Source: Octopus vulgaris (taxonomy: Eukaryota). Taken from it: a DNA stretch of 64,000 bases. Below, one piece after another: positions 21,481 through 28,386 of this stretch (position 1 is its first letter; each line of letters begins with the position of its first letter). The notes beneath the pieces were generated by a model. That model saw nothing but the letters and a program-made list of their open reading frames with translations, was not told the origin of the DNA and did not search any database. A program made the position numbers and the translations under genes. The stretch is taken from the NCBI GenBank assembly GCA_951406725.2, contig OX597818.1, positions 139,872,001 through 139,936,000 on the forward strand, given 5' to 3'.

Positions 21481-21650
21481 CAGATAGATAGCTAGATAGA
21501 TAGATAGATAGATAGATAGATAGATAGATAGATAGATAGATAGATAGATAGATAGATAGATAGATAGATAGATAGATAGATAGATAGATAGATAGATAGA
21601 TAGATAGATAGATAGATAGATAGATAGATAGATAGACAGATAGATAGATA
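21481..21650. repeat. (GATA)n array abutting the Tx1 3' end
   Basis: Direct inspection. Confidence 0.97.
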
Positions 21651-21951
21651 ACTTTTTATTGTAGCCACACAGGGCTAAACACAGAATAAAAATGGACGAA
21701 ATACAATGTAGAATTTTTTTCTTTTCGAGGTGGGATGGGTGGGGCAAAAAAAAAAAAAAAAAAAAACGTTTGATCAATAGGGATCTGTGGGTTGTGTGGT
21801 GTATAAAAAAGCAATATATATATATATATATAAGGTTCACAGTTTAGGTGTAGCCTTGGAAAGAAAAACCTACAAAAAAGACCAAGGTCACCTCAGCAAT
21901 TCGAAAAAGAACACATGAGTAAGTCGCCTTACTTCTCGTTGTCTCTTTTGG

Positions 21952-24900
21952 TTACAGATTTATGCTTAAAATAGTGTCGTCTTTCATACTGACCATTTTT
22001 GCCACTTTTACCCACTTTTTATTAAAACATTCGTTCGACAAAGCTTTCCTCTCTATTCTCATCCTCCTTTTCAAGTGGTACTTGAAAAAGTTGACGAGAG
22101 ACTGACCAGAGAGGAAGGTGTTTGTTTGCAGTCCTTTCAAACGCGTCCACCACACACATTCTTTCGCCATAGCCATCAGCGTAACGAAAACCGTTTTCCC
22201 TTCCCGTTTAAAGGAAGGTGGTGGAACAATATTCACGATAGACTCGGCCGATAGGCGAGCCTGACCTACACGTGACAACAGCTGTTCGACGAAGGACCAC
22301 AGCTCTTAAATATCTGGACACTGCACGAGTGCGTGCAGAACGGTTTCGTCGCTCTGACCGCATCTCGGGCAGGTCGGTCCGGTGATGGTTTTCGAACCGT
22401 GTCTGTAGCTCTTCTCTCGAACAGGTAGTGCGTCTCGATAGCACTGCCAAGCCAGGGATTTCTGGAAGTTATCCATAGGCCCCGGCCCGAACGTCGTCCT
22501 GAACAGGCGGGTTAGGAATTCTTCGTCGACGCCCAGGTTTGCCCCGAGTGTGTCGTCGGACCTCCTCTCCACTAGTCCTCTATAGAACGCTTTAGTCGTT
22601 TGTAAGTTGCACAAGTTTGACCCCGGTCGGCAGAGCTGCTGTAGAGCTTGGCGACACTCTCGGTGCCAATCGCCCAGTTTCGGTCTCTTTTTGATCCACG
22701 TTTGCAGTTCGGTCAGTGAGACGAGCTGCGGGAAGTCGCGCCTCACAAACGGCGCCCACACCTGTTCACCGTCGTCGATGAATTTCCAGAGATGTCGCAG
22801 TCTCAGCGCATGCCTGCGCATCATCAACCACGGCATGCCCAGTCCTCCATTCAACGGATGTTGACAGCAAATGGACTTCCTCACCATCGGAACGCCACCC
22901 TTCCACAGGAAGCGGAAGAGTATGCGTTCCAGTTTGGTGATGGTGGCGTCGGGACAAGGTACGACGGTCAGGCGGTAATCGATGACGGATGCGATGTACG
23001 CGTTCGCCACCTCCGCCCGGCCTTTTAGAGACAGCTTTCTCTCGGCCCATGTTTGGCTGAGAGCGACCACTCTACTCGTGATCTCGTCCCAGTTCTTATC
23101 CATTTGGAGGTCCGGACTGAACCAGACCCCGAGCAATTTAACCGGTCCGTCCGTCCAGCGTCCCACTACTGAGCCGCAGTCGGACGGCATGGGCTTGCTT
23201 CTCCAGGTGCCGAGTAGCAAACCCACTGACTTTTCCGGGTTAATCTTTGCTCCCGTCACCGTTTCATATTTTCTTAGTGTCTCGCCTATCATCTTGATGT
23301 GTTTGTCGCTCGACACTATGACGGTGACATCGTCCGCATATGCCGACACGCTCGTCCTGCAACCCAGTTCCCGTGGGATGCCCCTCAGTGTCGCCAGCTT
23401 CCGCAGTAGCGGCTCGAGAGTCAATACATACAGAAGCGCCGACAGGGGACACCCCTGACGGACCGAACGCGTGATGTCAAACGGTTTCGACAGGTGACCG
23501 TTCACCCGAATCACCGATCGGATGCCGCTATACAAGGCAGCGATCCAACCGCGGAAGACGGGACCGAAGCCAGCCGCCCTGAGGACGGCCGCCAAGTACC
23601 GATGGTCGACCCTATCGAAGGCTTTAGACTGATCCAAATTTATCAGCGCCCCACCCATGCCAGGATCCTTAACTACCCTGTCCACAATGTAGCGCATCAG
23701 ATGGAGGTTGTCATGTATGGTTCTGCCCGGCACGGCGCATGTTTGCGCCCTGTCGACCAGTTTACCAATGACAAGCGCCAACCTCTCGGCTATTACTTTG
23801 GCCAAAATTTTCAAATCTGCGTTGAGCAGAGTGATGGGCCTGAAATTATCTATAAAATTCCCCTTGTTTGAGTCTTTCTTCAGCAACGTCACTGCACCTC
23901 GGCTCACGAAACCGGGGATTCTCCCGTTTTGTTGCCAGTTGCAGTAGACTGATGCCAAGAGGTCGCCAAACAAGTCTGGCATTCGACAATACAGCTCGTA
24001 GGGTAAACCATCCAATCCAGGCGACTTATCCCTCGCGCAGCCCGCCATCGCATCCCACACGTCAGCGGCTGTGATGGGACTTTCACAACACTCCGCTTCT
24101 CTTGCCGAGAGCCGCGGCAGGTCGGTCAGGTAGGCACTGAAATCCATCCCGCGTTCCGACCCACCACTCGCACCAAACAGTCGAGCAAAGTGCTGTTGAA
24201 AGGCCTCACACATCCTTTCGGGTTCGAGTAAACTGCATCCCTGTTGATCTATTAGAGACCGAATGTTGGATCTGTTGCCACGCTGCGCCTTCGCTACCCG
24301 GGCCTCTCGCGCAGCTTCAATCCCTTCGTTCCTTAAGGCACGCATTTTAGCTCTGACGACGCAACCTTCGTGCTTGGCGTTGAGGTGTTGGTCGAGGGCC
24401 ATCCTCGCAGCCAGCACGTTGGTTGCGCTGCCAGTGGTAAGTGCCTCTTCTAGTTTCTTAACTAAGTCTCCCTCTACTCTATTTCGTTCTATCGCTAATT
24501 CCTTGCTAAACCTAATTGATTCCTATTTTATTGCCATTTTCAGGGCGTACCACCAGCGGTTGTTAACGACCGCTCCCGTCAGCGCCCTCTTAATTAACTC
24601 GCTAATCCGGTTCCTGTAAACCTGTCGCGCTAACAGCGACGTGTTCATTTTCCAGTAACCGGGACCCTGCCTATGTGTTTTATCTAAGTCGAGCGTACAC
24701 GTAACAAATTTGTGATCTGTGTAGCTGACTATTTTAAATTGTGGACATCCTACACTATCCCTATCTGCTGTCCTGCATAGAATTCTATCTAGATAAGATC
24801 TCGACGATCCGACGCGGTTTGTCCAAGTCCACGTTGGCACGTTCGGATGGTCGAGTCGGAACCTGTCAGACAAATGGAAACGTCTGAGCAGGTCTTTGAG

Positions 24901-25401
24901 GCTCTTACACCCCCTTCTATTCCTATCCCTTCCCACATAATCTAGATGCGTGTCCAAGGTAGCGTTCCAATCCCCTACTAACAGTAAAGGTCTAGACGTA
25001 CCCAGAAAAACCTCTAGACGTCTGAAGAAATCCGCCCGACCCGTTAAGGACGGTGCATAAACTGCCATCAGACGGAATGCACACCCATTTCTGCCATCCA
25101 CGTCCAAGACAACCAGCCTACCCTCCGGGTCTAGGAATATTGCTCTTACTTTTACCTTTAGACTCTTTCGAAAAAGCACCGCAGTACCTCCACCACCCAT
25201 GTTCGGCAGACAGGGAGAAAAATAAATGTCAAATTGATTGCCAAACATGGACTCGAGGGCCCGCGGCTTAGTGAGTCTGGTTTCACTGATAGCTACTATA
25301 TCCACGTCCAGTGACTTGATGTCGTTTAGAAGGTAGCCTTGCTTCCAAGCCGACGCCAAGCCACGCGCATTCACACAACCTAATTTAAGCATACTTGACA
25401 T
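21952..25401 (-). pseudogene. Tx1 ORF2 polyprotein (~1149 codons): AP endonuclease, reverse transcriptase and CCHC finger, with two in-frame stops
   Basis: APE motifs NARGL, ISET, YAPS, GDWN, LDRI, TDH. RT motifs SPGLDG, FRPITLLN, DQSKAFD, RQGCPLS, YADD. Finger CPRCGQSDETVLHALVQC. ORFs 24523-25401, 22306-24417 and 21952-22278 share one frame, split by TAG (24523-24525) and TAA (22306-22308). Confidence 0.95.
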
Positions 25402-25458
25402 TTACGAAAATGGTGTTTTATACACTATATTAGAAGAGACAAGAGGCAAGAAGTGAGG

Positions 25459-27160: not shown

Positions 27161-27516
27161 GTTACCGCACGTGGTTACAGCGTTCATTTCACCGATATTT
27201 ATATTTGCATTTAGCGCGCGAACGTTCTTTTTTGCTCCTATTGTTTCCAAACTAGGAAAATGCTGGTCAATAAAAGAACGCGACCAGCGTTCTACAATAA
27301 AATTTCTAGACATTTTCTAATGTCAAGAAGAAAATTACAGAAATGAAATGGGGTTGAAACTGCCCCTAGGGACGAATTCCTCCCTTGGAAAAGCACTCAA
27401 ACGAAAGTTGGGTGCCTTACACAACTTATTTACAAAAATGTTAACAAAAATTGAGCTATAAATAGTCAAAATAAATGATTACCTTCGGAGTCGAAATGAC
27501 AGCACGTCCATATACA

Positions 27517-27691
27517 GAGAGATAGATAGATAGATAGATAGATAGATAGATAGATAGATAGATAGATAGATAGATAGATAGAATAGACATATAGATAGAT
27601 AGACAGATCGATCGATCGATAAATAGATAGATAGATAGATAGATAGATAGATAGATAGATAGATAGATAGATAGATAGATAGATAGATAGA
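27517..27691. repeat. (GATA)n array between the two Tx1 copies
   Basis: Direct inspection. Confidence 0.97.
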
Positions 27692-28155
27692 TATGTTTCT
27701 TTATTAGCCACACAGGGCTGCACACAGATAGAACAAATTACAAGGTAGAGCTTTTCTTTTGAAGGTTTAAAAAAAAAAACGGAAGGGGGAGTTTCGATCA
27801 AAAGGAATCGTAGAAGAAGAGAAAGAGGACAAAAAAAGGGGGGTTAAAAAAAAGGGGGAGAGGAAAAAAAAAGAAAATTGATCAATATTGACACTCGCGG
27901 TGCCATTCGCCCTTCTTCGGCCTCTTTTTGATCCACGACTGCAGTTCGGTCATGGAGACGAGCTGCGGGAAAGCGTGCCTCACAAACGGCGACCACACCT
28001 GTTCACCGTCGTCTACATAGAGCCAGAGATGTCGCAGTCTCAGCGCGTGTCTGCGCATCATCAACCACGGCATGCCCAGCCCTCCTTTTAACGGGTGTTG
28101 ACAGCAAATGGATCGCCTGACCATCGGGACGCATCCTTTCCACAAGAAGCGAAAG
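27692..28155 (-). mobile_element. 5'-truncated, internally deleted Tx1 copy from a sister subfamily
   Basis: ORF 27882-28145 is a diverged paralogue of the post-RT region of the big copy. It is joined directly to a 3' UTR ending ctgtgtgcagccctgtgtggctaataaagaaa. Confidence 0.92.
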
Positions 28156-28386
28156 ATAGATAGATAGATAGATAGATAGATAGATAGATAGATAGATAGA
28201 TAGATAGACAGATAGATAGATAGACAGATCGATCGATAGATAGATAGACAGATCGATCGATCGATCGATAGATAAATAGATAGATAGATAGACAGACAGA
28301 TAGATAGATAGATAGATAGATAGATAGATAGATAGATAGATAGATAGATAGATAGATAGATAGATAGATAGATAGATAGATAGATA
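28156..28386. repeat. (GATA)n/(GATC) array at the 5' junction of the truncated Tx1
   Basis: Direct inspection. Confidence 0.97.

Follow-up and report, generated by a model that had tools for sequence, protein, structure and literature searches.

A young L1/Tx1-group retrotransposon family of Octopus vulgaris that probably inserts into GATA/TATC microsatellites

Introduction

Among retrotransposons that seek out microsatellites, the closest described systems are Kibi and Koshi of teleosts, which target (TC)n and (TTC)n, respectively (Kojima and Fujiwara 2004, as cited in PMC4494074 and PMC3812793). The targets given for the Tx1 clade in PMC4494074 comprise U2, (TC)n, (TTC)n, (TTCC)n, (TTTC)n and DNA transposons, and a Tx1 family is regarded there as target-specific when one sequence type makes up >20% of its flanks. 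The targeted microsatellite units listed in PMC3812793 are ACAY, AC, TC, TTC and TAA, to which PMC4640811 adds (TG)n, and the mechanism of microsatellite targeting is described as not well understood (PMC3812793). An expansion of L1-Tx1 elements has been reported in coleoids (PMC8967140), and 13 recently active L1-Tx1 families in Octopus vulgaris (PMC13282606). Here, we analyse a 64,000-nt stretch of the O. vulgaris genome (contig OX597818.1 of assembly GCA_951406725.2; G000:C5:139872001-139936000 in our coordinates), hereafter the window, which contains two retrotransposon copies, E1 and E2, set between (GATA)n arrays, together with their relatives across the 2.8-Gb genome. The family to which they belong, a member of the L1/Tx1 group, probably uses (TATC)n arrays that already exist as insertion sites, in one orientation and phase, with its endonuclease likely nicking the GATA strand at 5′-GATA^GATA-3′.

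Results

Two retrotransposon copies between GATA arrays

The two copies and their flanks follow the order array-element-array-element-array, with all four junctions (4/4) adjoining (GATA)n arrays. Both copies are on the minus strand, and their sense-strand flank is therefore (TATC)n. This arrangement, of two copies from different subfamilies in the same orientation, had been described by a sequence-only reading of the window and is confirmed here. Chance is excluded as its source, given that only 0.27% of positions in a 200-kb background (20 10-kb regions at round coordinates) fall inside a TATC array of at least three units or in the 14 bp that follow one. The features, in positions of the window, are as follows.

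21482..21650, no strand: (GATA)n array A, ~42 units, 3′ flank of E1
21651..27517, minus strand: E1, full-length subfamily-A copy of 5.87 kb, without poly(A) tail
21651..21951, minus strand: 3′ untranslated region (UTR) of E1, with a terminal predicted 4-bp hairpin (AGCC/GGCU) and AATAAA just ahead of the array
21952..25401, minus strand: open reading frame 2 (ORF2) of E1, with APE endonuclease, reverse transcriptase (RT) and C-terminal zinc motif
25459..27187, minus strand: ORF1 of E1, broken by stops and frameshifts
27188..27517, minus strand: 5′ UTR of E1, starting at the same place as in other full-length A copies
27516..27693, no strand: (GATA)n array B, ~44 units, 5′ flank of E1 and 3′ flank of E2
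27694..28155, minus strand: E2, subfamily-B copy 5′-truncated inside ORF2, without poly(A) tail
28154..28386, no strand: (GATA)n array C, ~58 units, 5′ flank of the truncated E2

Array A follows the last base of E1 directly, in phase as TATC. E1, the 5′ boundary of which is uncertain by ~5 bp, is called full-length because its start coincides with that of the other full-length A copies. The copy described earlier as near-complete, at 5.9 kb, thus reaches the full length of the element, but its ORF1 is disrupted and its ORF2 carries two in-frame stops (24523-24525 and 22303-22305). Its APE domain is unbroken and intact ORF2 copies exist elsewhere in the genome, so that the repair of this domain suggested before a nicking assay is unnecessary. 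Pfam models matched E1 ORF2 at APE (PF03372), RT (PF00078) and, weakly, zf-RVT (PF13966). The predicted 3′ hairpin is no more stable than in shuffled sequences (z −0.9). E2, likewise described earlier as truncated and diverged, is indeed cut off in ORF2 and 86% identical to E1 over 266 bp of that frame (99.6% to a subfamily-B copy); additionally, it has lost ~876 bp internally, which leaves a 267-bp ORF2 piece (27890-28156) directly next to the final ~190 bp of the 3′ UTR. No element 3′ end was found beyond array C, in agreement with the earlier argument that this array, at the 5′ end of a truncated copy, is not a tail.

Searches of the locus gave no tRNA and no convincing match in Rfam. Two more GATA/TATC arrays of the window, 15710-15791 and 57947-58141, contain no copy of the family, and a 1.46-kb (TTC)n-rich tract of ~479 units spans 9870-11328.

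A young, high-copy family

Exact 3′-end patterns recovered 213 subfamily-A and 5,939 subfamily-B ends genome-wide, both of which are lower bounds. The APE domain is 100% identical in at least 150 copies (the best 150 of 10,153 candidates), many of them in an open 1,149-codon frame, and its catalytic residues do not vary across nine aligned proteins. ORF2 is open in 7 of the 11 A copies checked, the median pairwise identity among these copies is 98.9%, and ORF1 stays open for 600–730 codons in several copies. The family is thus young and high-copy, with its two subfamilies sharing 84% identity in ORF2 over APE+RT. A single-sequence fold of the APE domain was poor (pLDDT, the predicted local distance difference test, 35.6). 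Among the public data sets listed as containing family sequence, none was of RNA.

Despite this similarity in ORF2, full-length copies account for 18/23 of A but only 7/80 of B. B copies have at least two different 5′ regions, and the identity of E1 to other A copies falls from ~99% in APE/RT to 94–95% in ORF1 and 87–88% in the 5′ UTR; together, the gradient and the differing B 5′ regions suggest that 5′ modules may have been swapped. Copies are also found in dense same-orientation stacks, one at G000:C1:60396764-60449269 (53 kb, with ~10 B ends and also A ends) and a second at C1:71615612-71633059.

One strand and one phase at the 3′ end

(TATC)3 follows exactly after 3,857 of the 5,939 B ends (65%) and 148 of the 213 A ends (69%), well over the 20% of flanks by which target-specific Tx1 families are recognized (PMC4494074). 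More diverged 3′-end variants likewise end on TATC, and one such copy lies between arrays within the 20 background regions. For closer inspection, 5,263 B matches were ordered by position and the first 81 taken, all of which fall within the initial 25 Mb of contig C1. The 3′ flank begins with TATCT in 73/81, with TATAT in 4/81 and with GATA in 0/81; the last base of the element is fixed, poly(A) is absent, and the TAT(C) of the target comes next.

Arrays on the 5′ side

Among the same 81 copies (three rows hand-corrected), 73 are 5′-truncated (31–4,952 bp), seven are full-length and one, running into an N gap, was set aside. An array of at least three TATC units occurs within 14 bp of the 5′ junction in 50 of the 73 truncated copies (68%), within 44 bp in 53/73, and next to 6/7 full-length copies. 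A 5′ array was also present in 21 of the first 23 A matches, two rows of which look like one duplicated event. Tabulating flanks genome-wide had been proposed as the test that could refute targeting, and the frequency of 5′ arrays at truncated copies comes out in favour of it.

These arrays bear directly on the possibility that the element itself makes or carries (TATC)n as a 3′ tail, the 5′ arrays being tails of neighbouring copies. Tandem stacking does occur, and 9/53 of the 5′ arrays follow the 3′ end of another element; yet for the remaining 44/53 an automated check detected no tail of an element further out. Together with the off-array copies and shared variants presented below, this makes a tail hardly credible.

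Off-array insertions and target duplications

Insertions outside arrays were chosen on purpose, as the first 30 B ends each of TATCT followed by non-A and TAT followed by non-C; in 50 of these 60, which partly overlap the 81-copy sample, the 5′ end was reached within 1.5 kb. Duplications of at least 9 bp were found at 14/50 loci, versus 0.4 in permutations, and non-repetitive duplications of at least 8 bp at 15/50, versus 0.86 (maximum 5 in 300 permutations). Nine clean duplications of 9–16 bp start with TAT flush at the element end, with nothing added. Target-site duplications that begin at TAT, with no tail units in between, support the earlier claim of GATA targeting as opposed to tailing. 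Moreover, 10/50 copies of this set are preceded by an array on the 5′ side but lack one over the initial 60 bp of the 3′ side, an arrangement that a tail cannot produce.

Shared array variants

Arrays on the two sides of an insertion also share locus-specific variants, which a tail would not explain. Of 37 insertions whose arrays bear variants, 8 have rare variant blocks in common between the two sides, versus 0.58 when permuted (maximum 5 in 1,000), indicating that both arrays derive from one local array. Arrays B and C of the window are one such sharing pair, with a TATT/GATC/TGTC block in common. The signal is far weaker when any array variant is counted (17 versus 9.6 permuted, maximum 16). 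The shared blocks might be explained by pre-existing higher-order repeats as well as by long duplications made upon insertion.

Preference for arrays over isolated motifs

Measured against the 200-kb background, arrays are used per site ~31 times more often than isolated TATCT and ~1,000 times more often than other TAT sites, and recognition must thus extend over more than five bases. In the same background (AT)n is ~12-fold commoner than (AGAT)n (10,684 bp versus 896 bp), yet it starts only 4/81 flanks. Most arrays are unoccupied, with one of nine background array loci filled (two if its flanking arrays are counted separately).

A preference for a short TAT(CT) motif alone, with arrays grown later by slippage of the duplicated motif or enriched through selective survival of array copies, would account for the hundreds of off-array insertions that begin with TAT, and microsatellites do mutate fast (PMC3812793). 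However, long arrays (median 92 bp each) already flank both ends of copies that are ~99% identical, 10/50 of the off-array-selected copies have an array on the 5′ side only, and selection would not fix one strand and phase as seen in the 3′ flanks. With the ~31-fold preference added, we consider this explanation improbable, albeit less so than a tail.

A SINE with nearly the same tail

An abundant short interspersed nuclear element (SINE), present in the window at 7127-7400, 9167-9430, 12480-12710, 12967-13200, 29028-29260 and 50310-50700, has nearly the same ~45-nt tail (hairpin and A-rich end) as the array-flanked long interspersed nuclear element (LINE) family. Use of the GATA/TATC target by this SINE was rejected, as TATC follows 0/45 of its tails. 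Its flanks have the consensus TA-G-G-TAT, often within another copy of the same SINE, with duplications of 11–17 bp. Its partner is likely a sister family of the array-flanked LINE lineage with a related TA-NN-TAT site.

Placement among L1/Tx1 elements

The family belongs to the L1/Tx1 group, having an ORF2 of APE-RT-zinc layout, an upstream ORF1, 5′-truncated copies and 9–16-bp duplications. The best match of ORF2 in the PDB is human L1 ORF2p (184 bits, residues 4-873), and the PDB scores of reference proteins (263–293 bits) do not separate L1 from Tx1. An ORF1 with a CCHC zinc knuckle is a feature of the Tx1 clade; E1 ORF1 has a weak zf-CCHC match in 26096-26581 (E 0.00066, 20.1 bits), below the Pfam cut-off of 20.8.

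By identity, the relatives are P0002 (73%), a protein of Argonauta hians (69%, the nearest named homolog), one group at ~43% and others at ~31%. Quick trees were built from RT (84 of 123 collected rows) and from APE+RT (47 rows), anchored by metagenome loci flanked by U2, 5S and U1 RNA sequence, with two tRNA labels judged by eye. The octopod elements and the 43% group form a branch of their own (support 100), separate from the U2-flanked branch. In the APE+RT tree this branch falls inside a larger group of U2-, 5S-, U1- and tRNA-flanked elements (support 96), which also holds the long-branch plant sequence P0094. The rows contain no named Tx1L, Kibi, Koshi or animal L1 sequences. Membership of the L1/Tx1 group is shown; membership of the Tx1 clade proper, as claimed from the window at the outset, is likely.

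The 80 metagenome loci are nearly all distant (24–33% identity, with two fragments at 45%), and no GATA/TATC array was found among the repeats listed for them (at most eight per locus). No relative of the family was found in viral contigs. The Tx1-like elements of the metagenomes include U2-flanked (L191, L193, L197, L202, L204), 5S-flanked (L207, L213) and U1-flanked (L225) loci, the last of which may represent a less familiar target, and at the end of one contig a distant L1/Tx1-like element runs out into an (ATTG)n array (L239:4174-4209).

Discussion

Mechanism of array targeting

Target-primed reverse transcription is the established mechanism of such elements. In the octopus family, ORF2p would bind its own RNA at the 3′ hairpin and the endonuclease would nick the GATA strand at GATA^GATA, whereupon the nicked ...AGATA-3′OH could prime reverse transcription flush at the last base of the RNA. 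Insertion might be completed by a second-strand nick ~9–16 nt downstream or by annealing further along the array. Because the flanking arrays would remain targets, copies of different subfamilies could stack head to tail, as in the window. Short target-like bases at the RNA ends may aid annealing, although the pattern is explicable without them. Specificity is probably set by the endonuclease, which is held to be the main determinant of target choice (PMC4494074); RNA pairing may contribute.

Several observations weigh against this explanation. Specificity is not strict: TATCT plus non-A follows 266 B ends and TAT plus non-C follows 327. The B sample is confined to the first 25 Mb of one contig. 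Twenty of the 73 truncated copies have no three-unit array within 44 bp of the 5′ junction; among them are arrays that are degenerate or two units long, tracts of (TA)n or (TC)n, off-array sites bearing duplications, and a number of ends without explanation. Moreover, 35/50 off-array loci have no detectable duplication. At the off-array insertion L161, no element-skipping joint indicative of an empty allele was seen among the joints listed for contigs of four public runs, and the 3′ junction was bridged in 4/4.

Two further such observations hint at repeat bases borne by the RNA. At locus L351 the 3′ junction reads TAT, but the corresponding bases of the target copy are TAC. In 23/29 full-length A copies the join to the 5′ array is TATTGAC, in a single phase, whereas truncated B copies end in all four array phases (20/11/10/5). 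The single phase may, alternatively, reflect no more than a TAT at the start of the element. Microhomology at the 5′ junction (at least 1 nt of overlap in 15/25, versus ~40% expected) is weak and was not used as evidence. Targeting could accordingly be real yet work mainly through RNA–DNA pairing, with read-through transcripts carrying UAUC repeats at one or both ends and a loosely specific endonuclease nicking A-rich or TAT sites, of which only nicks in arrays would be primed and sealed efficiently. Long variant blocks on both sides, which could reflect annealing far along the array, would fit such pairing, as would the SINE, which adds non-target TA or TAG at the 3′ junction in several loci. 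Against it, the nine clean off-array duplications have no repeat unit between element and target, and 5′-truncated cDNAs, which lack a 5′ repeat leader, nevertheless adjoin arrays in 50/73 cases. We regard pairing as the main determinant as unlikely, though it is the strongest of the three alternatives, and favour recognition of the array by the endonuclease.

A bolder scenario, possible but doubtful, is that an octopod Tx1-like lineage apart from Kibi/Koshi acquired its GATA targeting on its own and now farms the arrays that it uses: RNA with repeat bases at both ends would anneal far along the array and duplicate tens to at least 100 bases per insertion, lengthening arrays that are reused later, while sister families with the same tail hairpin would have shifted to the TA-NN-TAT site in the commonest SINE.

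Novelty and significance

GATA or TATC does not occur in the main text of PMC4494074 as far as covered, nor do the words ‘target’ and ‘GATA’ in the covered text and supplement of PMC13282606. No GATA-targeting LINE was found in the literature searched, Repbase and Dfam lying outside that search, so that a prior record is possible. The unit GATA/TATC and the octopod host group are thus apparently unreported, while microsatellite-seeking Tx1 relatives are already known. The initial suggestion of a target new for Tx1 appears to hold for this unit, with the host likewise apparently new, but not for tetranucleotides as such, given the (TTCC)n and (TTTC)n targets of crocodilian families (PMC4494074).

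With this family, the few APE retrotransposons that seek microsatellites gain a further target unit and a mollusc host. Its youth, the thousands of junctions with off-target sites and the intact ORF2s with identical endonuclease make the contributions of enzyme and RNA pairing directly testable. A retrotransposon that seeks a dispersed non-coding repeat is a candidate gene-insertion tool. In octopus, such insertions can interfere with GATA microsatellite markers and with the annotation of repeats.

Comparison with known systems

The U2-flanked elements, which we take to be Keno-like from their U2 flanks and not from named sequences, score best among the relatives that lie outside the octopod branch and its sister group (~31% over APE+RT) and have a similar ORF2 length, but they are placed on a distinct, well-supported branch that is not sister to the octopod elements. 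Human L1 ORF2p has the same APE-RT-zinc layout; L1 also inserts by target priming with short duplications, at a T-rich site, whereas the octopus family has no poly(A) tail, a fixed 3′ end and TAT(C) as its target. Waldo and Mino (R1 clade) and Dong and Togen (clades with restriction-like endonucleases) belong to other clades. They too are non-LTR (long terminal repeat) elements that target microsatellites, with other units: (ACAY)n for Waldo, (AC)n for Mino and (TAA)n for Dong (PMC3812793), and (TG)n for Togen (PMC4640811). The crocodilian Tx1 families likewise prefer tetranucleotide microsatellites, but these are (TTCC)n/(TTTC)n (PMC4494074); the octopus family differs from them also in being very young, as the near-identity of its A copies attests, and in having many open ORF2s. 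Kibi and Koshi are likewise APE-type Tx1-clade elements specific for a microsatellite; compared by target only, as they are absent from the trees, they occupy pure pyrimidine tracts in teleosts, whereas the octopus family occupies TATC/GATA in an octopod, with TATCT at the start of 73/81 3′ flanks sampled.

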